A stretch of DNA of 64,000 bases from an uncultured Alphaproteobacteria bacterium (GCA_902518705.1 CABYHW010000004.1:4084-68083); one strand, 5' to 3'; positions 1 through 25,015 are shown, numbered from the stretch's first letter. The notes: generated from the letters alone by a model not told the origin. Translations and numbers: made by a program.

Positions 1-69
1 TTATTAGTTTTTATTTTTTTACAAAAATATATTGTTGAAGGACTTACTGCAGGAGCAGTTAAAAACTAA
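1..69 (+). CDS. ABC transporter permease, C-terminal fragment (gene begins upstream of window)
   Basis: Frame 1 reads LLVFIFLQKYIVEGLTAGAVKN then TAA at 67-69. The same C-terminal signature (LQKYIV.GLT.GAVKN) ends the next permease at 910, as in paired MalF/MalG-type permeases. Confidence 0.6.
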   Translation, partial: LLVFIFLQKYIVEGLTAGAVKN

Positions 70-910: not shown

Positions 911-986
911 AGAAATACATAAAATCTAACTTGCCTCATAGAGCCAGATGATGTTATCTCTTCTTTATAATTTAAATGGAGGAAAT

Positions 987-2198: not shown

Positions 2199-2210
2199 TC
2201 ATATTATTTT

Positions 2211-2233
2211 GCTAGGGCTATATTTGCCCTAGC
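2211..2233 (+). terminator. Stem-loop directly after the binding-protein gene (partial terminator/attenuator)
   Basis: gctagggc-tatattt-gccctagc: perfect 8-bp stem 13 nt after the stop codon, no strong T-tract. It sits between the binding-protein gene and the next gene of the operon. Confidence 0.5.
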
Positions 2234-2251
2234 ATCAAATATAAAATTCAA

Positions 2252-2980: not shown

Positions 2981-3035
2981 GTATTTTTTAATTTTTTAAT
3001 AACTAGCAAATTACTATATAAGATATTAAATTTAG

Positions 3036-5142: not shown

Positions 5143-5143
5143 T

Positions 5144-7860: not shown

Positions 7861-7864
7861 AAAA

Positions 7865-8524
7865 ATGATTAAAAATATAATTTTTGATTTTGATGGTGTA
7901 ATTGTTGATAGTGAAGTTTTAGTTTCTAAAGCATTTGCCAAATATTTTAGTAAAATTGATTACGCAATTACTGAAGAGAAATTTTATAAATATGCAGGAA
8001 AAAAAACTGTTGAAGTAATAGATCTATTATCTGCTAAATATCAGATCCAAAATAAAGAAAAATTTACAAACGAAATATTTGAAATTGTTTCAGAAGTTTA
8101 TTCCAAAGATTTAAAACTAGTAGATGGAGCAAAAGACTATATCATCAAATCTGAAAGAAATCACTTCATTGGATCCAATAGTAATAAAGACAGAATTCTG
8201 GATGGTTTGAAAATTGTTGGTTTAGATAAAACATTTTTAAGTGATCAGGTTTACTCTTTTGATATGGTCCAAAGACCAAAACCTGATCCAGATATATACT
8301 TAAAGGTTTTAAATGATAATTCACTTGATAGAGAAGAAACAGTCATTATTGAAGATAGTGGAGTAGGTGTCAAAGCAGCTACTGAAGCAAAAGTAAGAGT
8401 ATTTGGTCTTACTGCAGGAAAACATTGGTATTCAAACAGAGAGAAAAATGAATTATTTGACAATGGTGCTTTGAATGTATTTAGTGATTATGAAAGTCTA
8501 GGTAAGGCAATAGAGGAACTTTAA
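7865..8524 (+). CDS. HAD-superfamily hydrolase (beta-phosphoglucomutase/phosphatase-like)
   Basis: 219 aa. Motif I IIFDFDGVIVDS, RPKPDPDIY, and motif IV IEDSGVGVKAA. Confidence 0.8.
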   Translation: MIKNIIFDFDGVIVDSEVLVSKAFAKYFSKIDYAITEEKFYKYAGKKTVEVIDLLSAKYQIQNKEKFTNEIFEIVSEVYSKDLKLVDGAKDYIIKSERNHFIGSNSNKDRILDGLKIVGLDKTFLSDQVYSFDMVQRPKPDPDIYLKVLNDNSLDREETVIIEDSGVGVKAATEAKVRVFGLTAGKHWYSNREKNELFDNGALNVFSDYESLGKAIEEL

Positions 8525-10470: not shown

Positions 10471-11622
10471 ATGAACGAAATTTTTGATATTTTAGTTATT
10501 GGAGGGGGTATTAATGGTGCTGGAATTGTAAGAGACGCCTCAGGAAGAAATTTAAAAGTTTGTTTGGTTGAAAAAAACACAGTTGGCTCAGCTACTTCGT
10601 CTTGGTCTACAAAATTAATACATGGTGGATTAAGGTATCTTGAAAATTATGAATTTCGTCTAGTACGTGAATCTCTTAAGGAAAGAGAAGTAATTAAAAA
10701 AATTGCCAGTAATATAACAACACCATTACCTTTTATTATACCGCATCAAAAATCTTTAAGATCTAAATGGTTAATTAAATTAGGATTATTTTTATATGAT
10801 AATATTGGCGGCAAAATGACTATACCAAAATCTTCAACTATAAATATTAAAAAGGAAATTCCTAATATTTTAAAAGATCAATTTAAAATTGGTTTCCAAT
10901 ATTATGATTTACAAGTTGATGATAAAAAACTTGTTCAGTTAAATGTTGAAGATGCAAAGAAAAAAGGTGCAATGATTATTCAAAATAGAAAAGTTATAGA
11001 CGCAAAACGAAATAAAAATATTTGGGATATAACTTTAGATGATAACACTATACTTAAATCTAAAATTCTTATTAATGCTGCTGGCCCTTGGATAAATGAA
11101 GTTTTACATAATGTTATTAAATTAAATTCAAATAAATCAATTCGACTTGTAAAAGGTAGTCATATAATAACTAAAAGTCTTTATAGTCAGAAAAAAGCTT
11201 TCACTTTACAAAATGAAGATAACAGAATAATTTTTGTAATACCGTATAAAGATGAATATTCACTTATTGGCACTACTGAAACAGAAGTTTTTTCACCAGA
11301 AAATCCTAAAATTGATGAAAGTGAAATTGATTATTTATTAAACTCAGTAAATAAATATTTTGTTAAACAAATATCAAGAAATGATGTCGTAAGTTCTTAT
11401 TCTGGAATTAGACCGCTTATTGAAGATTTTAAAGAAGCTTCAAAAGTTACTAGAGACTATATATTTGATTTAAATGAGGATGGTTCACAAGCACCTTTAC
11501 TAAGCATTTATGGTGGAAAATTAACAACATATAGGAAATTAGCTGAAAATGTTCTTTTAACTCTTAATAATCATATTCCCATAAATAAGAAAAATTCTTG
11601 GACTGCTGAACAAAAACTATAA
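10471..11622 (+). CDS. glpD: FAD-dependent glycerol-3-phosphate dehydrogenase, short form lacking the usual C-terminal domain
   Basis: DILVIGGGINGAGIVRDASGRNLKVCLVEKNTVGSATSSWSTKLIHGGLRYLENYEFRLV and YGGKLTTYRKLAE are classic GlpD. The ORF stops at 383 aa, shortly after the conserved YGGKLTTYRKLAE/W-T-x-E region. Confidence 0.85.
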   Translation: MNEIFDILVIGGGINGAGIVRDASGRNLKVCLVEKNTVGSATSSWSTKLIHGGLRYLENYEFRLVRESLKEREVIKKIASNITTPLPFIIPHQKSLRSKWLIKLGLFLYDNIGGKMTIPKSSTINIKKEIPNILKDQFKIGFQYYDLQVDDKKLVQLNVEDAKKKGAMIIQNRKVIDAKRNKNIWDITLDDNTILKSKILINAAGPWINEVLHNVIKLNSNKSIRLVKGSHIITKSLYSQKKAFTLQNEDNRIIFVIPYKDEYSLIGTTETEVFSPENPKIDESEIDYLLNSVNKYFVKQISRNDVVSSYSGIRPLIEDFKEASKVTRDYIFDLNEDGSQAPLLSIYGGKLTTYRKLAENVLLTLNNHIPINKKNSWTAEQKL

Positions 11623-11738: not shown

Positions 11739-11777
11739 ATTCATAATATTTATTGAAAATTTTTAAAAAAGGGATGT

Positions 11778-11800
11778 ATTGCCCCTTAATAAGGGGCAAT
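11778..11800. terminator. Bidirectional terminator hairpin between convergent glpD and the ABC ATPase gene
   Basis: attgcccctt-aat-aaggggcaat, a 10-bp stem. On the minus strand a T6 run follows a few nt after the stem. Confidence 0.6.
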
Positions 11801-11816
11801 AATTAATACGATTCTA

Positions 11817-12947
11817 TTATTTAAATGCTTCGCCTGAACTATCAAATAATTGGCATCTTCCAGCAGGGAATCCTACTTTTACAGTATCACCAACTTTGAT
11901 TTCAGAATGTCCTTCAGTTTCAGCAACTAATGGCTCTCCATCTTTTTCAAGGTATAGATAAGAAACGTCACCAAGCTTTTCGACAACAAATACTTTACTT
12001 TCCCAAGACCCATCCGCATCACCATTTACTACTAAGTGCTCTGGTCTAATGCCTAAAGTTACTGAATCACCCTCTGAAGATGATGCTGACATTTTAGAGA
12101 CTGATATTTTTGACATTCCCATAATATCAACTTCTGTAGCATCAGAACTTTTGCTTAATATCTTACTTGAAATAAAGTTCATTTTTGGTGATCCAATAAA
12201 CCCACCTACGAACATATTATTTGGTTTATCATAAAGTTCTAGTGGTGATCCTTTTTGTGAAACTATACCTGTATCAAGTACAACAATATCATCAGCTAGA
12301 GTCATAGCTTCTGTCTGATCGTGTGTAACATAGATCATTGTTGCTTCTAGTTCATTATGCAGTTTTGCTAATTCAACTCTCATTTGAACTCTTAATGCAG
12401 CATCAAGGTTTGAAAGCGGTTCATCAAATAAGAAAACTTTTGGCTTTCTGGTAATTGCTCTCCCAATAGCAACACGCTGTCTTTGACCACCTGAAAGTTG
12501 TTTAGGTTTTCTTTGAAGATAATCTTCTATTTGAAGAATTCTTGCTGCCTCATTTACTCTTTCATTAATTTCATCTTTTGATCTTTTTTCTAGTTTTAAA
12601 CCAAACGCCATGTTATCAAATACAGTCATGTGAGGGTATAATGCATACGACTGAAACACCATTGCAATATTTCTTTGCTTTGGTGGTAAATCATTAACTA
12701 CCTGACCATCAATTGAAATTGTGCCTGAATTTATATCTTCTAGTCCCGCTATCATTCTTAACATAGTTGATTTACCACAACCACTTGGGCCAACTAAAAC
12801 TGTGAATGATTGACTTTTTATATCAAGAGAAACATCCTTAATTACATGGACGTCTCCAAAATATTTATTAACAGTATTTATATTTATATCTGCCACTTCA
12901 TCCTCCTTTGAGCGATCTTTCAAGTGTATGAATACATCATCATACAA
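11817..12947 (-). CDS. CUT1 ABC transporter ATP-binding protein (MalK/UgpC/MsiK family)
   Basis: 376 aa. Walker A GPSGCGKST, signature LSGGQRQR, Walker B FLFDEPLSNLD, VTHDQ, and a C-terminal MalK-type regulatory domain (GSPKMNF). Confidence 0.9.
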   Translation of the reverse strand: MYDDVFIHLKDRSKEDEVADININTVNKYFGDVHVIKDVSLDIKSQSFTVLVGPSGCGKSTMLRMIAGLEDINSGTISIDGQVVNDLPPKQRNIAMVFQSYALYPHMTVFDNMAFGLKLEKRSKDEINERVNEAARILQIEDYLQRKPKQLSGGQRQRVAIGRAITRKPKVFLFDEPLSNLDAALRVQMRVELAKLHNELEATMIYVTHDQTEAMTLADDIVVLDTGIVSQKGSPLELYDKPNNMFVGGFIGSPKMNFISSKILSKSSDATEVDIMGMSKISVSKMSASSSEGDSVTLGIRPEHLVVNGDADGSWESKVFVVEKLGDVSYLYLEKDGEPLVAETEGHSEIKVGDTVKVGFPAGRCQLFDSSGEAFK

Positions 12948-12999
12948 ATATATTTATATTTAAAGGTATATTTATTGAAAAATCAATACTTTTTAGTAT

Positions 13000-14139
13000 T
13001 TAACCTTTAACTGATCCAGCTACTAAACCTCGTATAAAATATCTCTGTAGAGCAAAAAAGATAAATAAAGGTACAGTCATTGATACAAAAGCACCAGTAG
13101 TTAAAATTTCCCAATTTTCACCTCTAGATCCAAGTAATTCTTTTAATTTTGCGGTTAATATTATTTCACTTGGAACCTGATCTAAAAATACTAAACCTAC
13201 TAAAAGATCATTCCAACACCATAAAAATTGTAAAATAAATATTGAAGCAAAAGCTGGTATCGAAAGAGGAATAATTATTCGTAAAAAAATATCATAATGA
13301 GAAGCACCATCAACTTTAGCAGCTTCCATCATTTCATTAGGTAAGCTTTTTAAAAAATTTCTTAATAGAAAAGTAGTTGAGGCTAATCCAAAACCAGTAT
13401 GTGCCATCCAAACACCGGGATAGGACTTAGCTGCTACTCCAAATAATGCTCCAAAATCATTATAGATTGTTAGTATTGGTATTAGAGACATTTGAAGAGG
13501 AACAACTAGAGATGCAATTATTATTGCTAGTAAAGTATCCCTTCCATAAAATTTCATCCAAGTTAAGGAATATGCAAAGAAAGAGCATATTATTAAAGGA
13601 ATTAGTGTTGAAGGTAATGCTACTGCCATTGTATTAATAAAAGCTCTACCAATTCCTTCCTTGAATAATACTTCTCTGTAATTTTCAAAAGTAAATGCAG
13701 GAGGACTTAATGATGTAGTAAATAATCTCTTACCTTTTTTCTTTTTAAATTCTGTTTTAGATCTCCATTCATAATTTCCATCTTCATCAAGAAGCACTTC
13801 ACTTTCATCTTTAAAAATTGCGACATCTCCAATATTAAATTCATTAATTTTTTTAGATGTAATTCCAAAACTTTCTATTTTTTTTTCTGAATTATCTTCA
13901 AATAACTTTCCTTTAATTTTGAAATAACCATCTTCTTCAATTTGGCTTTCCATTCCTGACATTCTATAAATTTCATTTACTTCAGTAGTAGTTAAGGAAG
14001 TCCACCATCCACTTATAGCTAATAAATCTTTATCTCTTAAAGAACTAATAAACAGACCAAATGTAGGAATAATCCATATAATAACAAAGAAGAGGAGTAA
14101 AAGTTGAGATAATAAAGATGATATTGAAAATTTCTTCAT
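13000..14139 (-). CDS. CUT1 ABC transporter permease (MalG/UgpE/AglG-like) with a long periplasmic insertion
   Basis: 379 aa. EAA loop MEAAKVDGASHYDIFLRIIIPL and a roughly 110-aa hydrophilic insertion after TM1. Confidence 0.85.
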   Translation of the reverse strand: MKKFSISSLLSQLLLLFFVIIWIIPTFGLFISSLRDKDLLAISGWWTSLTTTEVNEIYRMSGMESQIEEDGYFKIKGKLFEDNSEKKIESFGITSKKINEFNIGDVAIFKDESEVLLDEDGNYEWRSKTEFKKKKGKRLFTTSLSPPAFTFENYREVLFKEGIGRAFINTMAVALPSTLIPLIICSFFAYSLTWMKFYGRDTLLAIIIASLVVPLQMSLIPILTIYNDFGALFGVAAKSYPGVWMAHTGFGLASTTFLLRNFLKSLPNEMMEAAKVDGASHYDIFLRIIIPLSIPAFASIFILQFLWCWNDLLVGLVFLDQVPSEIILTAKLKELLGSRGENWEILTTGAFVSMTVPLFIFFALQRYFIRGLVAGSVKG

Positions 14140-15122
14140 TATATTTTTTGTTCCTGTCTATGTTTGTATAAGTTCCATGCTAAGATTGGTATGACACCAA
14201 TCATAATAACAATTGCTAAAACACTTCCTCTTCCCGAGTCACCACCACCTCTAAACATCCAGTCGTACATTAAGTTCGCTAAGACTCCAGTTTGCCATTC
14301 CCCATTAGTCATAGCAAAAATAATATCAAATATTCTTAAAACAATTATTGTAATTAATGTCCAAATCACAAGTATCGTTTGTTCTAAATAAGGAATTATA
14401 ATTGAAAAAAATATTTTTAACTCACTAGCTCCATCAATTCTTGCTGCTTCAAGCATTTCCTTAGGTATACTTCTTAATGCAGCACTAAAAATAACTAAAG
14501 CTAATCCAGTTTGTATCCAAATCATAATAGCCATCAAAAAGAAATTGTTCCACATAGGTATTGTTAACCATGCTTGTGGTTCATAACCAAGAGAAACAAT
14601 TATTGCATTAAGTAGTCCAATTTGTGTATTCTCAGGCCCTCTATACTCATAAATAAATTTCCAAATTACACCAGCTCCTACAAATGATATTGCCATAGGC
14701 ATAAAAATTATAGATTTTGCAATTGAACCCCACCAAATTCTATCAGCTAAGTTAGCAATGACTAATCCAAAAAAAGTGCTTAATGTTGGGACTACAAGTA
14801 ACCATACTAAATTATTTAATATACTTCTTCTAAATTCGGGATCATTAATTGCCCATTTGTAATTGTATAGTCCGACAAATTCTCTTCCAAATTTATCATA
14901 AAAGCTAAGCCTGATAGTTTCAAACACTGGATATAAAATAAAAATAAATAAAACAATAAATGCGGGTGTTATAAAAACTATGACCCTTATAGAATTTTCA
15001 AAATTATATCTTTTCAGTGTTTTGTTACCATAAGTATCTAAAATATAATTTGAGATATGAAAGTAGGCTATGAAAAATAATATTCCTAAAAAAACAATAA
15101 ATACTAAATTCAGGATGGTCAT
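14139..15122 (-). CDS. CUT1 ABC transporter permease (MalF/UgpA/AglF-like)
   Basis: 327 aa. EAA loop LEAARIDGASELKIFFSIIIPY. 1-nt overlap with the downstream permease. Confidence 0.85.
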   Translation of the reverse strand: MTILNLVFIVFLGILFFIAYFHISNYILDTYGNKTLKRYNFENSIRVIVFITPAFIVLFIFILYPVFETIRLSFYDKFGREFVGLYNYKWAINDPEFRRSILNNLVWLLVVPTLSTFFGLVIANLADRIWWGSIAKSIIFMPMAISFVGAGVIWKFIYEYRGPENTQIGLLNAIIVSLGYEPQAWLTIPMWNNFFLMAIMIWIQTGLALVIFSAALRSIPKEMLEAARIDGASELKIFFSIIIPYLEQTILVIWTLITIIVLRIFDIIFAMTNGEWQTGVLANLMYDWMFRGGGDSGRGSVLAIVIMIGVIPILAWNLYKHRQEQKI

Positions 15123-15144
15123 TAGTGATTAAATATATAAAAAA

Positions 15145-15175
15145 AACAGGCGAACAAGTTAATTGTTCGCCTGTT
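15145..15175 (-). terminator. Rho-independent terminator/attenuator between binding-protein gene and permease genes
   Basis: aacaggcgaacaa-gttaa-ttgttcgcctgtt, followed on the minus strand by T8. It sits 14 nt after the binding-protein stop. Confidence 0.75.
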
Positions 15176-15188
15176 CATAATTGAAAAG

Positions 15189-16499
15189 TTACTTAATTGC
15201 GTCCCAACTATCTTGGATCGCATCTGCTACATCTTGGGCAGATTTTCCGTTAGTATAGTCAACCATACCAGTCCAGAAAGTTCCAGCACCAATAGCACCA
15301 GGCATTAAGTCTGACGCATCAAATCTAAACGTTGTTGCGCCTGTTAAAATTTCACCTAGTTTTCTAAAAGTTTCACTAGCATATTTACTTCCATCAACAC
15401 CTTTGTGAGGAGTCAGGAAACCACCTTTAGCCATCCAATATTCATGAGCTTCAGGATGCATTAAGAATTTAATGAACTCTATTGTTGCTTGGTTATCATT
15501 AGTAGCCGCTACTAATGTACCAGCTCCAAGTACAGGAGTACCTAAATCTTTTCCAGCAAATGCAGGGAAATAGAAAAAGTCATAATCTACACCAGCTTCA
15601 ACACCTTCAGGAAAGAATGCAGGAATAAAACTTGCCTGACGGTGCATCATGCACTCAGCAGGAGAAGTAAATAAACCATTTGGAGCATCTCTGAAGTCTG
15701 TTGTAGCAACTGCTTTTGATCCACCATTAACATAACTATCGTTTAGAGCAATTGAGCCAAAGAAATCCATTGCCTCAAGAACTCTTGGGTCATTGAAAGG
15801 CATTTCGTTTGACACCCACATGTCGTAAACATCTGGAGAATGAGTTCTAAGCATAATATCTTCCATCCAGTCAGTTGCAGGCCAACCTGTAGCTGCTCCA
15901 GAACCTAGACCAATACACCAAGGGGTATTTCCATCTGAAGCCATTTGTTCAGTTAATGCCATAAGTTCTTCCATAGATGAAGGAACTTCATAACCATTAT
16001 CTTCAAAGTTATCAGGTGAATACCAAACTAAACTTTTTACGTTAGTTCTAAAAAAGATAGCATTAAACTGATCATTACCGTTTTCATCAGCATAAGTCGA
16101 TAGATCAATCCATGATTGACCGGCAGCATAGTTATCTAAAACTAATTGTTTAATATCATCTCCAAGAGGAACTAATCCTCCCATTGCTGCAGCATTAGCA
16201 GCTAGACCAGGTTGTGGAAACACAACTAGATCAGCAGCACTTCCAGCTTTTAGATCGATCATAACTTGTTGTTCAAAACTATCTGAGCCTCCATATTCAA
16301 ATGTTGCTCCTGTAGCTTTTTCAAATATAGCACCTACTTCTCTCATTGTTTCTTGCTCTGGAGATAACCAAGGACCAAACATAACTACCTTTTGTCCACT
16401 TAGATCAGGACCAGTATATGCGTGTCCTCCAGCAAATGCAGAGAAACTTAGAAATAATGAAGAAATAAATACTACTAGACTTTTAATTGAATTTTTCAT
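15189..16499 (-). CDS. Extracellular solute-binding protein (family 1; sugar/alpha-glucoside/glycerol-phosphate type)
   Basis: ORF 15189-16550. Preferred start is ATG at 16499, preceded by GGAGG (complement of 16504-16508), giving the signal peptide MKNSIKSLVVFISSLFLSFSAFA. Codon usage looks high-expression. Confidence 0.85.
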   Translation of the reverse strand: MKNSIKSLVVFISSLFLSFSAFAGGHAYTGPDLSGQKVVMFGPWLSPEQETMREVGAIFEKATGATFEYGGSDSFEQQVMIDLKAGSAADLVVFPQPGLAANAAAMGGLVPLGDDIKQLVLDNYAAGQSWIDLSTYADENGNDQFNAIFFRTNVKSLVWYSPDNFEDNGYEVPSSMEELMALTEQMASDGNTPWCIGLGSGAATGWPATDWMEDIMLRTHSPDVYDMWVSNEMPFNDPRVLEAMDFFGSIALNDSYVNGGSKAVATTDFRDAPNGLFTSPAECMMHRQASFIPAFFPEGVEAGVDYDFFYFPAFAGKDLGTPVLGAGTLVAATNDNQATIEFIKFLMHPEAHEYWMAKGGFLTPHKGVDGSKYASETFRKLGEILTGATTFRFDASDLMPGAIGAGTFWTGMVDYTNGKSAQDVADAIQDSWDAIK

Positions 16500-16544
16500 T
16501 AATCCTCCTAATTTATAAAAAACAATTATCCCATCATTAGTTAT

Positions 16545-16595
16545 TGTCAATTTATAATAACTTTCTAATTGTTGATATTTACTGTCAATTTATAA
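16545..16595 (-). promoter_or_regulatory. Two direct copies of a 13-mer carrying TTGACA upstream of the binding-protein gene (candidate promoter/operator)
   Basis: tgtcaatttataa at 16545-16557 and 16583-16595. On the minus strand this is TTATAAATTGACA, i.e. a consensus -35 hexamer. The proximal copy lies about 46-58 nt upstream of the ATG, with GATAAT/TAATTG as possible -10. Confidence 0.35.
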
Positions 16596-16657: not shown

Positions 16658-17653
16658 TTATGATGGCACAATTTTTGAAATATAAAATGAATTATCCTTA
16701 TTTTGTTTAATTATTGCTGGAATAATTTCCTTATATGCATCAAATAAACTAGTATTTGCTTTTGGTAATTGATTCTTAATTAAATTACTTAATTTAGGTA
16801 AATTGTAAGATGGCACAGATGGAAACATGTGGTGTTCAACATGATATTCCATATGCCAATATAAAAAACTAAAAATTGGATTTAAGCGCACTGATCGAGT
16901 TGTAAATCTGTGATCTTTAATATCTTCAGGTAGACCAATATGTTGAGTTTGATTAAAAAGTTCAATAATATTTCCCCAATACCTAGGAAAGAAAATTAGA
17001 AGAGCTGGAAGTGGATTCATTAAATAAATGGATATTACAAAAGATGCTATCCATATTGTAACATGTATTCTTGAAATAAGTCTACATTTCCAAATTTCAT
17101 TTTGAGGTATGCAATCTCTCATAACAGGAGTTGTAAGCCCAATAGCATGTTTAATAGTTTCAAATTTCCATGAGTCTTTAAATTTTATTAACTCTGCGAA
17201 TGGTACAAAGCTAAATAGAAAACTTTGAAGAGTTGGATATTGATGGAATAATGCAGCTTCATAATCATGAGGGTCTTTTACTGAAGCAGTGTTGCTATGA
17301 TGTCTAAAATGGCTCCACGTCCACCTTGTAGGCTCAAAGTCTGTCATAAAAGAACCTATTTGATAAAAGATTTCATTTAAATATTTTGATTTGAAAGCTG
17401 TTCTATGACCACATTCGTGCCAGATAGGGTTACTTGCGTAAAATAAAACACCATAAAGCCATAGCCATAATACAGTCCACCATGTTCCCCAAGTTACTGC
17501 AGACATGTATCCAAAGAAAAATAGTAATATGAAATATATGGTAACGTGCTGTAATCCCTTAAGATCACTTTTTTTTGATAATAGTTTTAAGTCTTTTTTA
17601 CTTATTTCGGCCCTAAACCATTTAGTATCTACGTTATCTAATTCTTCTGACAT
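16658..17653 (-). CDS. Membrane di-iron oxygenase of the fatty-acid desaturase/hydroxylase superfamily (paralogue A)
   Basis: 331 aa. Three His boxes HECGH, HFRHH, HVEHH, with hydrophobic spans between them. About half the positions look identical to the ORF at 23886-24899. Confidence 0.8.
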   Translation of the reverse strand: MSEELDNVDTKWFRAEISKKDLKLLSKKSDLKGLQHVTIYFILLFFFGYMSAVTWGTWWTVLWLWLYGVLFYASNPIWHECGHRTAFKSKYLNEIFYQIGSFMTDFEPTRWTWSHFRHHSNTASVKDPHDYEAALFHQYPTLQSFLFSFVPFAELIKFKDSWKFETIKHAIGLTTPVMRDCIPQNEIWKCRLISRIHVTIWIASFVISIYLMNPLPALLIFFPRYWGNIIELFNQTQHIGLPEDIKDHRFTTRSVRLNPIFSFLYWHMEYHVEHHMFPSVPSYNLPKLSNLIKNQLPKANTSLFDAYKEIIPAIIKQNKDNSFYISKIVPS

Positions 17654-17712
17654 TGATCTTTTATAAAAAAATTGATGAAAATATAAAGATAAAAATCAAC
17701 TATTTTGACACA

Positions 17713-18768
17713 CTAAACATCAACCCATTTACCAATTTCATTACTTTCTATACATTTATCAATAATATTTTGAATTTTTGCACCTTGATAAAAATCTGGT
17801 TGCATATTCAGGTTTGTTTTTATTGATTCTATAAAATTTTTATAATTACTGGGTGTTTTGGGGCACTCAATTGTATCCCAAGACATTTTATTGATATTTT
17901 CATTTATACAAATGTGAAGAGTCGACCATTTGGTCCTTTCTTCATCAAGCTCAACCTTTACAGCACCCTTTGTACAAAATACTTCTAAGATTATGGAATT
18001 TGCATGTCCGGTTGCATATCTTGTATTTGTTATTGTTCCAATAGCTCCATTCTCAAATCTAACTAACGAATTGAAACCATCATTAGCATCTAATGTATAT
18101 TCTTTTATTTTATTTCCTTTATCGAAGTATGTTTTTAAATCAGTACAAATCTCTTTTATGTCACCTACTGCATTAACAGCAAAATCAAAAATATGAACAC
18201 CCGTATCCCCTAAAGCACCGTTACTTCCATGTTTTGTTGATAGTCTCCACAACCATTTGTCTTCTTCTCTCCAATCACCCCATTTATTACTTGTAAGCCA
18301 AGACTGATAATAACAAGCACTAACATGTCTTGGGCTTCCTATTTCACCAGATTTTAATATTTCAACTAATCTTTGATATGCACTTGACTCCCTATAAGTA
18401 AAATTAATCATATTAATTTTTTTAGATTTTACTGCCGCATTTACCATATCTTTTGCATCACTATAATTTTCAGCAAGTGGTTTCTCACAAAAAACATTAT
18501 AACCACTTTTTAAAATTTGTAGTGTAGTTTCTTTATGAAACTTATCAGGTGTTGTATTGCTAATACCATCAAAAGTTTTTTCTTTTTCAAGCATTTCTTC
18601 TAAACTCAAATATCCTCTGATATCTGCATTTTTATTATTTGATAAAAATATTTCTAAATTTTTTTGATTTGTATCACAAACAGCTTCAACATTAACATTT
18701 GGCATATTGTTAAATTCATTAAGATGTCTTGAAGAAATATTTCCTGTTCCAACAATACCAATTTTCAT
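17713..18768 (-). CDS. Gfo/Idh/MocA-family NAD(P)-dependent oxidoreductase (ThuB/IolG-like)
   Basis: 351 aa. N-terminal Rossmann KIGIVGTGNISSRH, EKPLA motif, typical C-terminal alpha/beta domain. Confidence 0.85.
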   Translation of the reverse strand: MKIGIVGTGNISSRHLNEFNNMPNVNVEAVCDTNQKNLEIFLSNNKNADIRGYLSLEEMLEKEKTFDGISNTTPDKFHKETTLQILKSGYNVFCEKPLAENYSDAKDMVNAAVKSKKINMINFTYRESSAYQRLVEILKSGEIGSPRHVSACYYQSWLTSNKWGDWREEDKWLWRLSTKHGSNGALGDTGVHIFDFAVNAVGDIKEICTDLKTYFDKGNKIKEYTLDANDGFNSLVRFENGAIGTITNTRYATGHANSIILEVFCTKGAVKVELDEERTKWSTLHICINENINKMSWDTIECPKTPSNYKNFIESIKTNLNMQPDFYQGAKIQNIIDKCIESNEIGKWVDV

Positions 18769-18769
18769 T

Positions 18770-19552
18770 TTATTTTTCTTCTGTTGGATGTCCTACACTA
18801 AAACCTTTCTTACTAATCTTTTCAATAGGTCTTGGTCTATTACTTTTCGGAGTTGGAGAGTGTATGTCTTCCCACAAAATTTTATTTTTTTGTTTTACAA
18901 AATGTATTGCATTTGTGATTACTTTTTGCACATTAATATTATGGTAAGTTGGATAAGCTTCGTGACCTGGTCGAAAATAAAATATTTGACCATTTCCTCT
19001 TCTGTATAGTAATCCAGATCTAAATGTTTCTCCTCCTTCAAACCAACTAGTAAAAAGGGTTTCATCTGGAGAAGGAACTTGAAAAGGCTCACCATACATC
19101 TCTTCCATTTCTATTTCAAAATATGGATCTAAACCCTCACAAATAGGATGCCCAGGATTGCATATCCATAATCTTTCTTTTTCTCCATATTCTCTCCAAG
19201 TTAGATTGCAATTGGTACCCATTAATCTTTTAAATATTTTAGAATGGTGTCCGGAATGTAATACTATCAAACCCATTCCCTCAAGAACTCTTCTTTGAAC
19301 CAACTCAACGGTAGAATCTAAAACCTCTTCATGGGCTTTGTGACCCCACCAAATGACAACATCACAATTGTTTAATAATTCTTCACTCAATCCATTCCCA
19401 TCTTCTTTGAGTGTAGCAGTTTTAATTTTTAAATTAATATCAGTTGATAAAAAATCTTTTATGCTGTTATGAATACCCTGAGGATAAATTTTTTTAACTT
19501 TTTCATTTTCTACTTCATGAATATTTTCATTCCAGATAATTACATTTGTCAT
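18770..19552 (-). CDS. thuA: ThuA-like (trehalose utilisation protein A family) protein
   Basis: 260 aa. VIIWNENIHE, DVVIWWGHKAHEEV, GMGLIVLHSGHHSKIFKRLMGTNCNLTWRE, EMYGEPF, FRSGLLYRRGNGQIFYFRPGHE are characteristic ThuA-family blocks. Confidence 0.8.
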   Translation of the reverse strand: MTNVIIWNENIHEVENEKVKKIYPQGIHNSIKDFLSTDINLKIKTATLKEDGNGLSEELLNNCDVVIWWGHKAHEEVLDSTVELVQRRVLEGMGLIVLHSGHHSKIFKRLMGTNCNLTWREYGEKERLWICNPGHPICEGLDPYFEIEMEEMYGEPFQVPSPDETLFTSWFEGGETFRSGLLYRRGNGQIFYFRPGHEAYPTYHNINVQKVITNAIHFVKQKNKILWEDIHSPTPKSNRPRPIEKISKKGFSVGHPTEEK

Positions 19553-19558
19553 TTTGTT

Positions 19559-20533
19559 TTATCTAACTCTTTCTCCATGAAGACGATGTCCTAATAATGC
19601 TAACAATATAATTAAACCATTAAAGAATTGTCTCCATTCACCACTCCAACCTATTGCTATTATACCAATTTCCATATAGGCAATTATTCCTACGCCAAAG
19701 ACTGCCCCAATGATCGTACCCAATCCCCCCCAGTAAGGAGTGCCGCCAACAAACACTGCCGCGAGAGCTAATAACAAATATCCAAAACCCTGAGTAGGAA
19801 AAAATGTATATGTAATCATAGTGGTAAATATTCCACCTATAGCTGCACCAACACCAACAAACATAAAAGCTTTTATTTTAACAGCATTTACATTAATACC
19901 CATTTGTTCTGCACTAACAGAATTATCTCCTACATGCTGAATATGAATACCAAAAACATGTTTGTTAAAAAAATAGTAACAAAAAATTACAAATATTGCT
20001 GCCCAAAAAATTTGCATTGGGAAGCCATAAAAATTTCCAACTAAAAGAGGGTAGATCCAGTGGTTCTCTACTTCCATAATCGTAATGGATCTGCTGTTAG
20101 ATAATAAGAGAATTACACCTCTCAATAAAAATAATACTCCAAGTGACGCAACAAGAGAGGAAAGTCTAAATACAACAATTAATGTTCCAACGAGAGCACC
20201 AATAGCTGCTCCAGTAAAAATACCAAGAACTAAACAAATAGCTGGATCAACTCCATTTTTAACAAGTAAAGCAAATATATAAGCTGCTACAGCGTAAGTA
20301 GAGGCAAAGGAAAGATCTATTTCACCAGATGCAACTAGAAAAACTAATGGTATAGTTAAAAATATCAAAGTTGGCATCATTACAAATACTGATTGATGAA
20401 GGTTAGGCCTTATCCAAGCTTCTGGTGCACCTATTAAAAAAATTACCATTAATAGAACAAAGTATCCAATGCTTCCTAAAGCCCTTCCATTTCTGTGAAA
20501 GTAATTACTTAAATATGAATTATTTTTACTCAT
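19559..20533 (-). CDS. CUT2 (ribose/fructose-type) ABC transporter permease
   Basis: 324 aa, Gly/Ala-rich polytopic protein of RbsC/AraH/FrcC type. Confidence 0.8.
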   Translation of the reverse strand: MSKNNSYLSNYFHRNGRALGSIGYFVLLMVIFLIGAPEAWIRPNLHQSVFVMMPTLIFLTIPLVFLVASGEIDLSFASTYAVAAYIFALLVKNGVDPAICLVLGIFTGAAIGALVGTLIVVFRLSSLVASLGVLFLLRGVILLLSNSRSITIMEVENHWIYPLLVGNFYGFPMQIFWAAIFVIFCYYFFNKHVFGIHIQHVGDNSVSAEQMGINVNAVKIKAFMFVGVGAAIGGIFTTMITYTFFPTQGFGYLLLALAAVFVGGTPYWGGLGTIIGAVFGVGIIAYMEIGIIAIGWSGEWRQFFNGLIILLALLGHRLHGERVR

Positions 20534-21279
20534 TAGTGTGCCTTTATTGTTTCTCGCATTATCTTCATGAGTTCTTCTGGTGTTGATACATCATTTTTAT
20601 TAAGTTGATGAACAACTTCTCCTCTATCTAAAATTACAAATCTATCCGATATATCATATACATGATAAATGTTATGACCAATAAAAAGAACTGATCTATT
20701 TGATTTTTTTACATTTAGGACAAAATCAAAAACTTTCTGTGTTTCATTAAGAGATAAGTTATTTGTTGGCTCATCAAGAACAATTAATTCTGCTTTATTA
20801 TAAATTGCTCTTGCAATTGCTACGCCTTGTCTTTCACCTCCGGATAAATTTCCAACAGGAGATTCAGCATTAATTAATTTTGATGTAAAACCTATTTCTC
20901 TTATTAATCTATTTGCTTCAAAAATTTGTTCTTTTTCTTTTATAAAACCAAATGGGTATCGAAGTTCCTTACCCATAAAAATATTTTTAACTATCGATTG
21001 TTGTGGAGTTAAAGCTCTATCTTGAAAAACAGTTTCTATACCAGACTCTCTAGCCTTGAGGGCATTCCAAGCGTTTACTTTTTTTCCTCTTATTAGTATA
21101 TCACCTTCGTCAGGACTATATACACCTACTAGTGTTTTAATTAATGTTGATTTACCTGCACCATTATCACCAATTAAACCTACCACTTCACCCCTGGTTA
21201 CTTTTAATGATGCTTTGTTTAGAGCAGTAATACCGCCAAACCTTTTTGTAACATTATCTAATTCAATGATATTTTCCAT
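20533..21279 (-). CDS. ABC transporter ATP-binding protein, single cassette (FrcA-like)
   Basis: 248 aa. Walker A GDNGAGKST, signature LSGGERQ, Walker B LIVLDEPT, GHNI. It is half the size of the usual duplicated CUT2 ATPases. Confidence 0.85.
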   Translation of the reverse strand: MENIIELDNVTKRFGGITALNKASLKVTRGEVVGLIGDNGAGKSTLIKTLVGVYSPDEGDILIRGKKVNAWNALKARESGIETVFQDRALTPQQSIVKNIFMGKELRYPFGFIKEKEQIFEANRLIREIGFTSKLINAESPVGNLSGGERQGVAIARAIYNKAELIVLDEPTNNLSLNETQKVFDFVLNVKKSNRSVLFIGHNIYHVYDISDRFVILDRGEVVHQLNKNDVSTPEELMKIMRETIKAH

Positions 21280-21291
21280 AAAATTTGAAAT

Positions 21292-21315
21292 GCTAACCCA
21301 TTAAAATGGGTTAGC
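21292..21315 (-). terminator. Stem-loop between binding-protein and ATPase genes (attenuator)
   Basis: gctaaccca-ttaaaa-tgggttagc, a perfect 9-bp stem 12 nt after the binding-protein stop. Confidence 0.5.
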
Positions 21316-21326
21316 AATATATTTAC

Positions 21327-22322
21327 CTATCTTAAGCCTGCATCAGCAAGAGCTTTAACAGCTTGATAATTATTTGTATCAACAAATCCTGCACCAGTAT
21401 CTTGGTTTATTGCACCAGTACCAAGTACAGCTGTTTGACAAAGTGACAATACTGGAAGATACCCTTGAAGAAAAGGTTGTTGATCAGATGTTAGATGAAC
21501 ATATCCTTTTTCAAACGCCGACATAATTTGTGGACTTGTATCAAATCCAATTTGAAGTAACTCATCTGGTCCATAACCAGCAGCTTTGGCAATACCTTCC
21601 GCAACATTCATTACATCACTACCAGAGTGAACAATTACTTTTGTTTCAGGATTGGCATTTAACGCTGCTGAGAAAACTGGGATAGTCATATTTGGATCTG
21701 AAGCATAAGCTGGTTGTCCATCAAGAACAGTAACTGTCATTCCGTGTTCTTCAAATATGATTCTTGCACCATCTTCTCTTTGAGCTCTAGCGTAATCTCC
21801 AATAGGAACCATTACTATAGCGTGATCTCCAGCTTTGAAACCAAATTGCCTAATTGCTTCTCTTGCAAGAGCTTTACCTTGAGTTGCTAAATTTGCTCCT
21901 ACGTATCCGCCACCAAATTTTGCTCTTACACCTGATGGATCAACGTTTTGATATGTCATTAGAATACCCTTTTCAGCGGCTTGTTTTGCTAAAGGCATTA
22001 GAGCTTCATCTCCTGGATGTCCCATCATTGCAATAGCATCAACACCAAGTCCAACTGATTCTCTAAGTTGACGGACCATTTTTTCAAAATCCCATTCTGA
22101 GTATATAATTTCGGCGTCAGCTCCAGTATCTCTAATAGCATTCATAGCTCCTGCTGCAACTATTCCAGCAAAACCTCCTGCTTCAGGACCACCTGCATAG
22201 AAATGCATTTTTACATCTGAGCACCATTTATCACCTAGGTCTTGTCCAGTTGGAGCAGCATAAGCTTGCATAGAAACTGGAAAAAGAAATAAAGTAATAA
22301 GAAGTAATTTAATAATTTTCAT
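21327..22322 (-). CDS. Periplasmic sugar-binding protein (RbsB/LacI-type fold, CUT2)
   Basis: ORF 21327-22334. Preferred ATG at 22322 behind GGGAGG (complement of 22327-22332). Signal peptide MKIIKLLLITLFLFPVSMQAYA. Ala/Gly-rich type I PBP pattern. Confidence 0.8.
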   Translation of the reverse strand: MKIIKLLLITLFLFPVSMQAYAAPTGQDLGDKWCSDVKMHFYAGGPEAGGFAGIVAAGAMNAIRDTGADAEIIYSEWDFEKMVRQLRESVGLGVDAIAMMGHPGDEALMPLAKQAAEKGILMTYQNVDPSGVRAKFGGGYVGANLATQGKALAREAIRQFGFKAGDHAIVMVPIGDYARAQREDGARIIFEEHGMTVTVLDGQPAYASDPNMTIPVFSAALNANPETKVIVHSGSDVMNVAEGIAKAAGYGPDELLQIGFDTSPQIMSAFEKGYVHLTSDQQPFLQGYLPVLSLCQTAVLGTGAINQDTGAGFVDTNNYQAVKALADAGLR

Positions 22323-22403
22323 ATTTCCTCCCACGGATTTATTTTTAACATTAATATTAAATAATAATAATAAAGTTTAACAAAAATAACTTGTAAATGT
22401 CAA

Positions 22404-23840
22404 CTAGTAGAGTCTTTTACTTATACGCTTAGTTTGTCCATGACTATAGACACCATCAACCCCACCATCTCTTCCATAACCAGATCTTTTGTAACCCCCT
22501 CCAGGTAGGTTGGTTCCATCAACAGCCCAGTCATTATGCCATATAATTCCGGCTTGAATTCTATCAGCTGTCCATCTCGCTTTTTGATCATCTGCAGTAA
22601 ATACACCCGAAGCTAGACCATATTTCGTTGAGTTTGCTATACTTATTGCTTCTTCTTCATCTTCAAAATCAAATATTGATGTAACTGGACCAAATATTTC
22701 TTCTTGTGCAATTGTTGCATCAATTTTTACATTGTCAAAAATCGTTGGTTTGTAGAAATTACCATCTTCTCTTTCAGCCTTTTCTCCACCTATGGCTATA
22801 GTTGCTCCTGATTGTACTCCAGATTTTACATAATTTGAGACTCTTTGCATTTGATCTTTTGAAATAAGTGGTGTTACCTGAGTATCTTTTTCATCACCTG
22901 CACCAACTTTTAATTTTTGAGTTTTTGCCACTAGCTTTGTCATATACTCATCCTTAATTTTTGGATGCAGTAATACTCTAGACATCGCTACACAAATTTG
23001 ACCAGCATTAGGTTTAAAAACTCCTCTTAAAGTACTGTCTACAGCTTTATCAATATCGGCATCAGGATAGATTATAGCTGCAGACTTTCCGCCTAATTCA
23101 AAATGAGTAGGAATAATTCTATCTGCTGTTTCTTTTAGAATTTCAGATGCAACTTCAGGCGATCCTGTAAAAACAATATAATCACTTCCAGGATGTTGAA
23201 CTAGTTTTCGACCAGTTGTTTCACCATAACCATGAACAATATTTATAATTCCATCTGGCACGCCTACATCTTTAAAAATTTGACCATAAAAATTAGATGA
23301 TATGGGACACAATTCAGGAGGTTTGATAACTATTGTATTTCCAACAATCCAGTTTTGTGCAACCATACCTGAAAAAATAGAAACAGGATAGTTCCACGGA
23401 ACAATTTGAAGAGCTACTCCAAAAGGCTCAAGTACAACATAATTTAAAGTATCATGTCCTGAAGGTATAAGTTTATTTTCTATTTTATCTGTTAGCCCAG
23501 CATAAAAATCAAAAGTATCAGCAGCACCTTTAAATTCATCTATACATTGTTTGATTGTTTTACCATTTTCTTGACTTAAAAGTTTACCACCTTCATTTTT
23601 TCGTTCCCTTAATTTTTGAGCAATTGCTCTCATCATATTTGATTTATTTTTTGCATCCATGTCTACTAAAATTCTTTTATCAAAAGCTCTTTTTGCTGCT
23701 TGGAAGGCTAAATCTATTTCTTCATCAAGAGCTTCATCGATATTTCCTACGATTTTTTGATTTGCTGGATTTAAAACAGGAATATTTTTTTTTGATATTG
23801 AATCAATAAAATTACCATCGATAAAATTTCTTAACTCCAT
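22404..23840 (-). CDS. NAD(P)-dependent aldehyde dehydrogenase
   Basis: 478 aa. Catalytic Glu context FELGGKSA, catalytic Cys context AGQICVAMSR, plus EEIFGPV. Confidence 0.9.
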   Translation of the reverse strand: MELRNFIDGNFIDSISKKNIPVLNPANQKIVGNIDEALDEEIDLAFQAAKRAFDKRILVDMDAKNKSNMMRAIAQKLRERKNEGGKLLSQENGKTIKQCIDEFKGAADTFDFYAGLTDKIENKLIPSGHDTLNYVVLEPFGVALQIVPWNYPVSIFSGMVAQNWIVGNTIVIKPPELCPISSNFYGQIFKDVGVPDGIINIVHGYGETTGRKLVQHPGSDYIVFTGSPEVASEILKETADRIIPTHFELGGKSAAIIYPDADIDKAVDSTLRGVFKPNAGQICVAMSRVLLHPKIKDEYMTKLVAKTQKLKVGAGDEKDTQVTPLISKDQMQRVSNYVKSGVQSGATIAIGGEKAEREDGNFYKPTIFDNVKIDATIAQEEIFGPVTSIFDFEDEEEAISIANSTKYGLASGVFTADDQKARWTADRIQAGIIWHNDWAVDGTNLPGGGYKRSGYGRDGGVDGVYSHGQTKRISKRLY

Positions 23841-23885
23841 ATAAATTATAAATAAAACTAAAGTTTAGGAAGTGTCAAGTATAGT

Positions 23886-24899
23886 TTAATTATTTGGAAC
23901 TTGAACTGGTATATAATAATCAGGATTTTTTGATTTTTTAATAACAGCTGGAATTATATCTTTATATGCAGAGTATAATGTTTGTGGTTCTGGTAACTGA
24001 TCTTTTATTACTTCATACAATTTAGGAAGATTATAAGATGGGACCATTGGAAACATATGGTGCTCGATATGATATTCCATTTTCCAATATATAAAACTAA
24101 ATACTGGGTTCAATCTTATAGACCTAGTAGATAGGCGATGATCTTTAGTATTTTCTTGCAAACCCATATGTTGAGTAATGCCCCAAATGCCATTAAAAGT
24201 TGCAAAAAATTTTGGAACTAAAAATAATAGTATTGGCAGTAATGAGCTAAAGTAAATTGAAGAAGCAATTATTGATATCCAAAGAAAAACAAAAAATCTT
24301 GAACTATTAATACAATCTTGAATTTTATCTTGAGGTATACAATCTCTCATTACATCTGTTTTAATTCCAAGAGCATGTTTGATAATTTCGATATATAATG
24401 ATTTATGTATAGTAAAAAATCCAATACCTGGGATAAAATTAATTAAAAAACTTAAAAGTGTGTGTTTAGAAAAAATACTTCCATCAGCTTCGTAATCGTG
24501 AGGGTCAACTGAGGCGGTATAACTATGATGTAGAGAATGACTCCATCTCCATCTAACAGGTTCAAAATTATTCATAAAGCTTGCAATATGATAAAAGAAA
24601 TCATTTAACTTTCGTGTTTTAAAAGCTGTTCTATGGCCACACTCATGCCAAATAGCATCAGCGCCACCCCAAAACATACAATACATAATATAGAATGGTA
24701 CAAACCACCAAGTCTGCCAGAAGTAAGCTGAAAGTATGCCAAGTCCAGTTAGAGATAATGTAAATATTATAATATGCTTCCACCCCTCATAATCTGTTCT
24801 TTTAGAGAGTTTTTTTAGAGTTTTCCGATCTATGTTTGCCCTAAACCACTCGTTTGATATGTTATTAATGCCTGTTTTTATTTTTTTATCATTTGACAT
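23886..24899 (-). CDS. Membrane di-iron oxygenase of the fatty-acid desaturase/hydroxylase superfamily (paralogue B)
   Basis: 337 aa. His boxes HECGH, HSLHH, HIEHH. Blocks shared with paralogue A: IWHECGHRTAFK, VMRDCIPQ, RLNPxFSFxYWxMEYHxEHHMFPxVPSYNLPKL. Confidence 0.8.
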   Translation of the reverse strand: MSNDKKIKTGINNISNEWFRANIDRKTLKKLSKRTDYEGWKHIIIFTLSLTGLGILSAYFWQTWWFVPFYIMYCMFWGGADAIWHECGHRTAFKTRKLNDFFYHIASFMNNFEPVRWRWSHSLHHSYTASVDPHDYEADGSIFSKHTLLSFLINFIPGIGFFTIHKSLYIEIIKHALGIKTDVMRDCIPQDKIQDCINSSRFFVFLWISIIASSIYFSSLLPILLFLVPKFFATFNGIWGITQHMGLQENTKDHRLSTRSIRLNPVFSFIYWKMEYHIEHHMFPMVPSYNLPKLYEVIKDQLPEPQTLYSAYKDIIPAVIKKSKNPDYYIPVQVPNN

Positions 24900-25015
24900 A
24901 TTTTCTTTATAATTAATAAAAAATTAATATTTTTCCAGTAATTTTCTTAATATTATTTTATAACAAACAAGCAATATTTAGTTTAATTAGCAAAATAATA
25001 GAAAAATCTTAAAAA

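Follow-up and report, generated by a model that had tools for sequence, protein, structure and literature searches.

Two predicted MocD-family membrane oxygenases bracket a conserved putative sugar or cyclitol uptake operon of marine bacteria

Why should two genes that resemble fatty acid desaturases stand at either end of a set of sugar uptake genes? The question is raised by a stretch of 64,000 nt from an uncultured Alphaproteobacteria bacterium (GCA_902518705.1, CABYHW010000004.1:4084-68083), here called the window. Positions 16658-24899 of its minus strand hold eight tightly spaced genes, of which the outermost two, desA and desB, are the desaturase-like pair. An original prediction counted nine genes in this interval, one too many; its gene and motif positions were all confirmed, with Pfam scores well above the cut-offs, and its range of -1 to 69 nt for the gaps fits the spacing found (45, 69 or 81, 47, -1, 6, 1 and 59 nt). 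The features are as follows.

23886-24899, minus strand: desA, MocD-like membrane di-iron oxygenase, 337 aa (PF00487, 122 bits)
22404-23840, minus strand: NAD(P)-dependent aldehyde dehydrogenase (ALDH), 478 aa (PF00171, 492 bits)
21327-22322, minus strand: CUT2-class periplasmic binding protein (SBP) with a signal peptide (PF13407, Peripla_BP_4); alternative GTG start at 22334
21291-21316, no strand assigned: palindromic hairpin with an 11-bp stem in the gap between the SBP and ATPase genes (hairpin scan)
20533-21279, minus strand: half-size ABC ATPase with a single nucleotide-binding domain, 248 aa (PF00005)
19559-20533, minus strand: RbsC-type permease with multiple hydrophobic segments, 324 aa (BPD_transp_2)
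18770-19552, minus strand: ThuA, 260 aa (PF06283)
17713-18768, minus strand: ThuB-like NAD-dependent dehydrogenase of the Gfo/Idh/MocA family, 351 aa (Pfam)
16658-17653, minus strand: desB, second MocD-like membrane di-iron oxygenase, 331 aa (PF00487, 109 bits)

The G+C content of the window is about 30%. The closest relatives come from single-cell genomes labelled 'uncultured Alphaproteobacteria' (one of them Pelagibacteraceae), with desA identities of up to 97%. Judged by sequence, the source is a SAR11-type genome.

The first step is to ask what desA and desB are. They had been called clear paralogues, and they are 51% identical over 329 residues (E = 3e-112); the blocks said to be shared, IWHECGHRTAFK, VMRDCIPQ and MEYHxEHHMFPxVPSYNLPKL, are present in both. 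The His boxes are HECGH, HSLHH and HIEHH in desA (H85, H121 and H277) and HECGH, HFRHH and HVEHH in desB. Two long hydrophobic stretches, at about residues 40-80 and 200-240, are arranged as in the membrane di-iron superfamily, and an AlphaFold2 (AF2) model is all-helical (pLDDT 84). Both proteins belong to the FA_desaturase family, their PF00487 scores lying far above the cut-off of 29.7 bits, and public records label them 'fatty acid desaturase' or 'stearoyl-CoA 9-desaturase'. On the curated lipid-desaturase models DesA and DesB the scores are only 29-39 bits, where 500 would be needed. Among the NCBIfam models desA matches GntB best, at 48 bits (cut-off 380). A sequence profile of the desA family matched no solved structure, and thus no solved desaturase; SCD1 superimposes on the AF2 model with a TM-score of only 0.32. 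The fold search with this model gave two matches, both subunits of the Chlamydomonas Ycf2/Orf2971-FtsHi complex at 12% identity, which are uninformative on function.

Much closer similarity is found on rhizobial plasmids. A tblastn search of plasmids with desA gave 396 records, mainly from Rhizobium, Ralstonia and Sinorhizobium, and desA aligns end to end, at 36-38% identity, with rhizobial genes annotated 'hydrocarbon oxygenase MocD-like'. It is 37% identical to the MocD-like protein of R. etli, and desB is 35% identical to a MocD-like protein. Overall identity is 35-38% over 96-100% of the length (E of about 1e-68 to 1e-70), the reference being the MocD-like plasmid genes and not the MocD of L5-30. 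Two papers, which both cite Bahar 1998, assign mocDEF to the catabolism of rhizopine (3-O-methyl-scyllo-inosamine), as its ferredoxin-oxygenase unit (PMC10107442, PMC5789663). The original prediction had named MocD as the closest precedent, and two further observations agree with this: relatives carry a MocE-family Rieske gene beside desA, and the best curated match of SBP is a rhizopine binding protein. A place for the pair among the lipid desaturases, which would have counted against that precedent, does not agree with the low scores on the lipid models and the full-length similarity to MocD-like proteins. From these homologies desA and desB are assigned to the MocD family of membrane oxygenases rather than to the lipid desaturases, and thousands of database entries named 'fatty acid desaturase' are probably misnamed.

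The two paralogues are not of recent origin. In a neighbour-joining tree desB and a single desB-like gene from a SAR11 single-cell genome (L080) fall outside the clade formed by all marine desA sequences; the paralogy is therefore old, and a recent SAR11 duplication of desA as the source of desB is ruled out. The L080 locus (1-20781) is a sugar-transport island in which a desB-like and a desA-like gene lie side by side, accompanied by a PanB-like gene and several sets of CUT1-type permeases.

Is the association with transport genes peculiar to one genome? The protein search brought up about 1,700 non-redundant relatives, the great majority of them of marine metagenomic origin. Among species-representative genomes, 555 related gene copies turned up in the scan; the best 80 loci, with their desA orthologues, were retrieved and their genes labelled by phmmer against the window proteins. 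An intact transporter module is present in 63 of the 80, and the remaining 17 are truncated or in other contexts. The exact window order, desA-ALDH-SBP-ATPase-permease-ThuA-ThuB-desB, is found in 32 loci from species-level genomes. Single-cell genomes with a cassette of the window type include AG-333-K22, AG-426-A05 and AG-891-K05. There are 14 loci in which desB is absent or the locus is cut before its position, and 14 in which a GH4 glycosidase replaces ThuA-ThuB. Because the order recurs in those 32 genomes and in the 14 loci without desB or cut before it, it cannot be put down to chance. In favour of the original prediction, the linkage to the transporter and ThuAB genes is conserved in dozens of SAR11 species-level genomes; as SAR11 genomes are minimal, a conserved eight-gene cassette is unlikely to be idle. 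In all of the intact loci desA lies in a transporter/sugar operon, neither standing alone nor linked to lipid metabolism, and no lipid-metabolism gene was found among the window genes neighbouring desA and desB.

The cassette is not confined to SAR11. Modified forms occur in MarineAlpha5, in Rhodobacteraceae and in one metagenome-assembled genome (MAG) labelled Gammaproteobacteria; a SAR11 variant (L095 and L096) lacks desA and has only the downstream oxygenase, desB. More divergent relatives have a fuller module, in which a divergently transcribed Rieske gene faces desA, followed by ALDH in some, a PanB-like gene, SBP, ATPase, permease, and then GH4 or ThuAB. In four loci (L100-L103) a complete cassette, Rieske / desA-ALDH-PanB-like-SBP-ATPase-permease-GH4, occupies an unrelated Pelagibacteraceae chromosomal site, flanked by housekeeping genes (GATase, methyltransferase, peptidase M16 and threonine synthase); it therefore behaves as a movable unit.

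Parts of the cassette also appear to move separately. Compared with the window, locus L045 is 80% identical in desA, 94% in ALDH and 87% in desB, and 74% in SBP, 80% in the ATPase, 66% in the permease, 65% in ThuA and 52% in ThuB. Comparison with L045, L095 and L096 shows the segment from SBP to ThuB (17713-22322) to exist as two divergent 'alleles' within one architecture, which suggests block recombination and possibly a second ligand specificity. SBP is 86-94% identical in the ten loci compared, which come from SAR11, MarineAlpha5, Rhodobacteraceae, the Gammaproteobacteria-labelled MAG and unassigned contigs, while desA in these loci (among them L001, L060, L063, L072, L004 and L081) is only 63-76% identical. 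Either SBP is under unusually strong selection or the transporter genes were transferred recently.

What, then, does the transporter carry? The Peripla_BP_4 binding protein and the BPD_transp_2 permease define a CUT2 importer. Its ATPase, at 248 aa, is not the fused two-domain form (about 500 aa); its alignment covers no more than the N-terminal half of the RbsA, XylG, AraG and YtfR models, and the single-domain form is kept in all relatives. The NCBIfam model that SBP matches best is the rhizopine binding protein MocB (NF052284), at 68 bits, far below the cut-off of 420. In the PDB its sequence is most similar to that of 4RU1, a verified binder of myo-inositol. With an AF2 model of SBP (pLDDT 86), glucose- and inositol-binding proteins rank at the top at 20-25% identity; this is the generic CUT2 fold, and the model confirms no more than a monosaccharide- or cyclitol-type fold and cannot resolve the ligand. 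In other phyla, transporters 53-56% identical to this one have different neighbours: GH31 with an aldo-keto reductase, a GMC oxidoreductase, or AP_endonuc_2 TIM barrels. The Chloroflexi example (L093:10001-17418, 55% identical) lies with an aldo-keto reductase, GH31 and an AP_endonuc_2 TIM barrel, a set which we take to resemble sulfoquinovose-type or 3-keto-glycoside pathways. The context of a distant SBP homologue on a Microvirga plasmid is uninformative. Together, the SBP similarities and the contexts of its homologues point to a small sugar, glycoside or cyclitol as the predicted cargo.

The genes that follow the permease suggest what happens to a sugar ring. GH4 glycosidases hydrolyse their substrates via NAD-dependent oxidation at C3. 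The window protein ThuA matches PDB 1T0B at 320 bits and is 56% identical to ThuA of S. meliloti. The Gfo/Idh/MocA gene, 1 nt away, is 40% identical over its full length to the S. meliloti ThuB encoded next to thuA, so that a PF06283 gene is followed by a ThuB-type gene, as in a ThuAB pair; its best curated match is levoglucosan (C3) dehydrogenase, and its best PDB matches are scyllo-inositol and levoglucosan dehydrogenases. ThuAB is known to form 3-keto-disaccharides (PMC8121099). The gene after the permease is ThuA-ThuB in 49 of the 63 intact loci and GH4 in the other 14, and since both work via C3 chemistry, the alternation looks like functional replacement. Oxidation at C3 by the window ThuAB, predicted from homology, is supported indirectly by this exchange.

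An aldehyde-oxidising step seems integral to the system. ALDH directly follows desA in the SAR11 and MarineAlpha5 relatives. The Rhodobacteraceae cassette has no ALDH in the operon; a molybdenum hydroxylase of the CoxM/CoxS/CoxL type lies beside its Rieske gene (L072:5908-9496 and L077:5902-9490) and could supply aldehyde oxidation, and possibly electrons too.

How would the oxygenases be supplied with electrons? It had been noted that the operon encodes no Rieske protein, ferredoxin or cytochrome b5, and this holds; a six-frame motif scan of the full 64 kb found no Rieske or plant-type ferredoxin cysteine pattern. In more divergent SAR11, MarineAlpha5 and Rhodobacteraceae loci, a divergently transcribed Rieske gene stands beside desA (in SAR11, for instance, in L060 and L064). 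Its product scores 116 bits on the MocE ferredoxin model TIGR02377, just short of the cut-off of 136, and shares 51% identity with a MocE-like protein from R. etli. In the four loci with the homologue P0334 and in the labelled loci the Rieske gene is always a neighbour of a desA gene, and no trans-acting copy was found in the window or in these loci. A MocF-type reductase was found only in rhizobial loci. As the window has no Rieske gene, the donor for its oxygenases must be encoded elsewhere. Gene content compared across relatives indicates that the window lineage has lost both the Rieske and the PanB-like genes.

The PanB-like gene provides the link to one-carbon metabolism. It is a divergent member of its family and occurs along with desA in 16 of the 63 marine loci that have an intact transporter; separate look-ups found it also in L004-L007 and L100-L103. 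Marine and rhizobial examples lie at the following positions.

L063:12573-13352
L072:11074-11871
L088:11649-12458
L089:11703-14316
L090:15009-16477

On two curated PanB models the marine protein scores only 113-136 bits, against cut-offs of 208 and 272, and it matches E. coli PanB at only 69 bits. In the alignment to E. coli PanB, the equivalents of the Mg-binding Asp84 and of Lys112 appear to be replaced. The marine protein is 42% identical to the product of a rhizobial PanB-like gene located after mocD-, mocE- and mocF-like genes. On each of the three rhizobial plasmids under study, the trio of MocD, MocE and PanB-like genes lies beside a ferredoxin reductase gene; purU comes after the PanB-like gene in two of them (Mesorhizobium and Sinorhizobium), and so does folD in one (Mesorhizobium). 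Because the trio is common to rhizobia and marine bacteria and has purU and folD as neighbours, the oxygenase is tied to the release of a one-carbon unit. This linkage of genes is the strongest argument for predicted demethylation by the oxygenase; the PanB-like protein is a candidate for, and is probably, an enzyme that passes the one-carbon unit to tetrahydrofolate. No functional study or description of the trio was found in the literature searched. Its chemistry is now open to direct tests.

These observations can be joined into a pathway. The CUT2 transporter, made up of SBP, the single-domain ATPase and the permease, would bring the compound in. Next, DesA and DesB would introduce a hydroxyl group at a C-H bond of its decoration, drawing on electrons from a donor encoded outside the window. 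If the decoration is a methyl ether, the resulting hemiacetal would collapse to a free hydroxyl and a one-carbon aldehyde, and the aldehyde formed would be oxidised by ALDH. ThuA and ThuB would convert the sugar ring to a 3-keto derivative, activated for cleavage or further breakdown. In the fuller modules the oxygenase would have a dedicated MocE-type Rieske ferredoxin, and the PanB-like protein would probably load the one-carbon unit onto tetrahydrofolate. A methyl group is the most probable decoration. It would be carried, probably, by a glycoside that may be alpha-linked or by an inositol-type compound. We consider the chances that a methylated glycoside or cyclitol is imported, demethylated, oxidised at the aldehyde and activated as a 3-keto derivative to be evenly balanced. 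The more general proposal made earlier, that an imported decorated cyclitol or glycoside is tailored oxidatively, is supported by the homology to MocD and by the conserved linkage.

Several findings count against this pathway. The most direct pointers to demethylation of the MocDE type, the Rieske and PanB-like genes, are missing from the window lineage; no MocE-type Rieske gene adjoins desA or desB in the operon, and no MocF-type FAD ferredoxin reductase was found in the window or within 10 kb in the retrieved marine loci. By similarity ALDH goes with the betaine-, amino- and semialdehyde dehydrogenases and not with any known formaldehyde dehydrogenase. The operon has neither a 3-keto-glycoside lyase nor a hydrolase. 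Hints as to the carrier conflict: GH4 and ThuAB indicate a glycoside, while the similarities of SBP and of the Gfo/Idh/MocA protein lean towards a cyclitol. Finally, a desA-like paralogue of about 69% identity is found in a non-sugar setting (L082:9989-10981 and L083:9989-10981), with an SBP_bac_3 amino-acid-type ABC transporter, a class-V aminotransferase, a 2-oxoglutarate-Fe(II) oxygenase, XdhC and a MobA-like gene; members of the family need therefore not share one substrate class. L082 shares a single-cell-genome contig with a locus that has the sugar-type cassette (L071).

The oxygenase might instead attack a carbon of the sugar itself, which is possible but unlikely. Oxidation of, for example, C6 of a 6-deoxy or 6-sulfo sugar would give a sugar aldehyde (with release of sulfite in the case of a sulfoquinovosyl compound), which ALDH would convert to a uronic acid, leaving an alpha-uronide to be processed by GH4 or ThuAB. 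The regular presence of an aldehyde-oxidising enzyme fits such a route, both as ALDH after desA in SAR11 and MarineAlpha5 and as the molybdenum aldehyde-oxidase-type enzyme by the Rieske gene in Rhodobacteraceae. So do the GH31 and aldo-keto reductase genes linked to the 55%-identical Chloroflexi transporter, which we take to be like the sulfoquinovosidase and 6-oxo-glucose reductase of the sulfo-ASMO pathway. The closest solved structure to the GH4 of the relatives is the alpha-galacturonidase LplD, which would suit a uronide, but LplD is matched only weakly (128 bits), and among curated families alpha-galactosidase ranks first. Attack on a sugar carbon also leaves the conserved PanB-like partner and the rhizobial purU and folD genes unexplained, and the closest characterised relative, MocD, is part of a demethylating system.

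It is improbable, in our judgement, that the aglycone of a small glycoside, such as a glycosyl-glycerol or an amino-alcohol glycoside, is split off by oxidative ether cleavage. Hydroxylation beside the glycosidic oxygen would yield a free sugar and an aglycone aldehyde, and ALDH would oxidise the latter to an acid. The best curated and solved matches of ALDH are betaine-aldehyde dehydrogenases (below the equivalog cut-off), which suits an aldehyde of this kind; CUT2 binding proteins can accept glyceryl glycosides, as E. coli MglB does, and GH4, ThuAB and the GH31 of a distant relative all place the system in a glycoside context. Once the glycoside had been split, however, a GH4 or ThuAB step would be redundant, yet one of the two is present in 63 of the 63 intact loci. 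The link to PanB-like, purU and folD genes is again left without explanation, and no marine glycoside of this kind is known to us.

A different possibility is that two independent modules have been juxtaposed, ThuAB serving a neighbouring CUT1 transporter as in a ThuEFGK-like disaccharide system, and the oxygenases and ALDH serving CUT2. This concerns the end of the operon, which had been placed at desB. The co-directional run continues for four genes past desB, to 11817, making 12 genes in all.

11817-16550, minus strand: co-directional CUT1 transporter as a whole, four genes plus a hairpin
15189-16550, minus strand: CUT1 binding protein (profile matches)
15144-15176: hairpin with a 14-bp stem after the CUT1 binding-protein gene (hairpin scan)
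14139-15122 and 13000-14139, minus strand: the two CUT1 permeases (profile matches)
11817-12947, minus strand: MalK/UgpC-like CUT1 ATPase (profile matches)
11777-11801, minus strand: terminator-like hairpin closing the 12-gene run, the only such hairpin that ends it

In S. meliloti thuAB follow a CUT1 transporter. The window lineage has its cassette upstream of the CUT1 operon; in some SAR11 genomes the oxygenase/CUT2 cassette lies inside that operon, between the second permease and MalK, and in several of these loci ThuA-ThuB are found between the CUT2 permease and MalK. The segment from SBP to ThuB, moreover, appears to recombine as a separate block. Nevertheless the idea of two modules has little probability. 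No CUT1 system adjoins the Rieske-desA-(ALDH)-PanB-like-CUT2-GH4 cassette in Rhodobacteraceae, in the Gammaproteobacteria-labelled MAG or at the second Pelagibacteraceae site, and GH4 still follows the permease there; ThuAB and GH4 alternate at this position in all 63 loci.

The Pfam match and the public labels would make desA and desB enzymes of membrane lipids, ordinary desaturases or hydroxylases which flank sugar genes by chance. This view is close to refuted by scores far below the cut-offs of the curated lipid families, full-length MocD-like homology, a dedicated Rieske partner in relatives, the lack of lipid-metabolism genes nearby, and synteny with the transporter across four bacterial groups and at least two chromosomal sites.

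Returning to demethylation, a wider proposal can be put forward, tentatively and with rather more doubt than confidence. In SAR11 and other abundant marine bacteria, MocD-type membrane di-iron oxygenases would form a pathway for removing one-carbon groups from methylated sugars or cyclitols; its full version would add a dedicated Rieske ferredoxin and a re-purposed PanB-like enzyme passing the one-carbon unit to tetrahydrofolate, and desA and desB would be two regiospecific demethylases. If so, the methyl-sugar fraction of marine dissolved organic matter would be joined to the one-carbon oxidation of SAR11 and to 3-keto-sugar catabolism, by an enzymatic sugar demethylation that is new and distinct from the cytochrome P450 route of marine Bacteroidota. 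Action of the oxygenases on any decorated sugar or cyclitol would point to a compound class that feeds the most abundant heterotrophs of the ocean; should the substrate be a sulfo- or deoxy-sugar, a new type of oxygenase would enter marine sulfur or deoxy-sugar cycling.

The individual parts have known counterparts. The rhizopine system of Sinorhizobium and Rhizobium (MocB, MocA and MocDEF) has an FA_desaturase-family oxygenase, of which desA and desB are homologues at 35-38% identity, a MocE-family Rieske protein (51% in the marine relatives), the rhizopine binder that is the best curated match of SBP, and a Gfo/Idh/MocA dehydrogenase, as the operon or its relatives do. It differs in that the window has no Rieske gene, MocF, MocC and MocR were not found in any retrieved marine locus, the window dehydrogenase is of the ThuB type and paired with ThuA, and the operon has two oxygenase paralogues and an added ALDH, with GH4 in place of ThuAB in relatives. 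The host is a marine oligotroph and the substrate is therefore unlikely to be rhizopine. The ThuEFGKAB system for trehalose and sucrose isomers in S. meliloti and A. tumefaciens likewise has ThuA and ThuB side by side and in this order (56% and 40% identity), near ABC sugar transporter genes, and in the window CUT1 lies directly downstream; here, by contrast, ThuAB come after a monosaccharide-type CUT2 importer, have MocD-like oxygenases and ALDH on their flanks, and can be exchanged for GH4. The widespread rhizobial and Ralstonia cluster of MocD, MocE, reductase and PanB-like genes shares its trio with the fuller marine cassette (37%, 51% and 42% identity) but has its own reductase on three plasmids and no fused transporter, GH4, ThuAB or ALDH.

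Two further systems provide precedents for the chemistry. In marine Bacteroidota a cytochrome P450 with a ferredoxin and a reductase demethylates the 6-O-methyl-D-galactose of porphyran, with formaldehyde as a by-product which the cell has to deal with (PMC6292453, PMC9400963). This is a precedent for the oxidative O-demethylation of a sugar by marine bacteria, although the enzyme is a soluble haem protein rather than a membrane di-iron one, is encoded in polysaccharide utilisation loci rather than an ABC-importer operon, and belongs to other hosts. GntB, the L-arginine gamma-hydroxylase of guanitoxin biosynthesis, shows that a member of the FA_desaturase superfamily can act on a small polar molecule (free arginine); unlike the pathway proposed here it is biosynthetic and not catabolic, and desA falls far short of its model. 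The combination had been thought undescribed, and the literature searched contained no account of the operon or of the SAR11 oxygenases; a SAR11 transporter survey, on strain HTCC1062, does not mention CUT2, inositol or ribose (PMC11485210). The MocDE-type oxygenase, ThuAB and the CUT2 importer are thus known pieces, and what is new is their combination, the marine host range and the implied chemistry.

Control regions are indicated mainly by position. One more feature belongs to the operon.

24900-25015, minus strand: AT-rich intergenic region of 116 nt, presumed promoter region, shared with a divergent UDP-glucose dehydrogenase gene

A promoter scan gave 57 matches against 67.6 expected by chance and no promoter was called; because the scan did not rise above chance, the operon promoter is presumed to lie in this region from position only. 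An Rfam scan of 11-26 kb found no element. Strong hairpins directly follow both binding-protein genes (21291-21316 and 15144-15176, with stems of 11 and 14 bp). A hairpin in this place is a usual way to raise the mRNA of a binding protein relative to the membrane components, and that at 21291-21316 is likely an mRNA stabiliser or attenuator within the operon.

The CUT1 ATPase (11817-12947) passes the UgpC (glycerol-3-phosphate) model at 465 bits (cut-off 432), and scores 486 bits on the MalK model, below the cut-off of 568. Its gene adjoins a divergent gene for an FAD-dependent oxidoreductase of the DAO family (10471-11622). The CUT1 binding protein was considered as a counterpart of the glucose binder SAR11_0769, but this found no support; it has no match to the SAR11_0769 PDB entries at E <= 1e-10, and its best match is AcbH. 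A second carbohydrate island lies on the plus strand of the window at 32-8524. Besides a CUT1 permease and binding protein it encodes SIS_2, an amidohydrolase, SIS, a GMC oxidoreductase, a member of the enolase superfamily and a HAD hydrolase, and the route may be one for an amino-sugar or a sugar acid.

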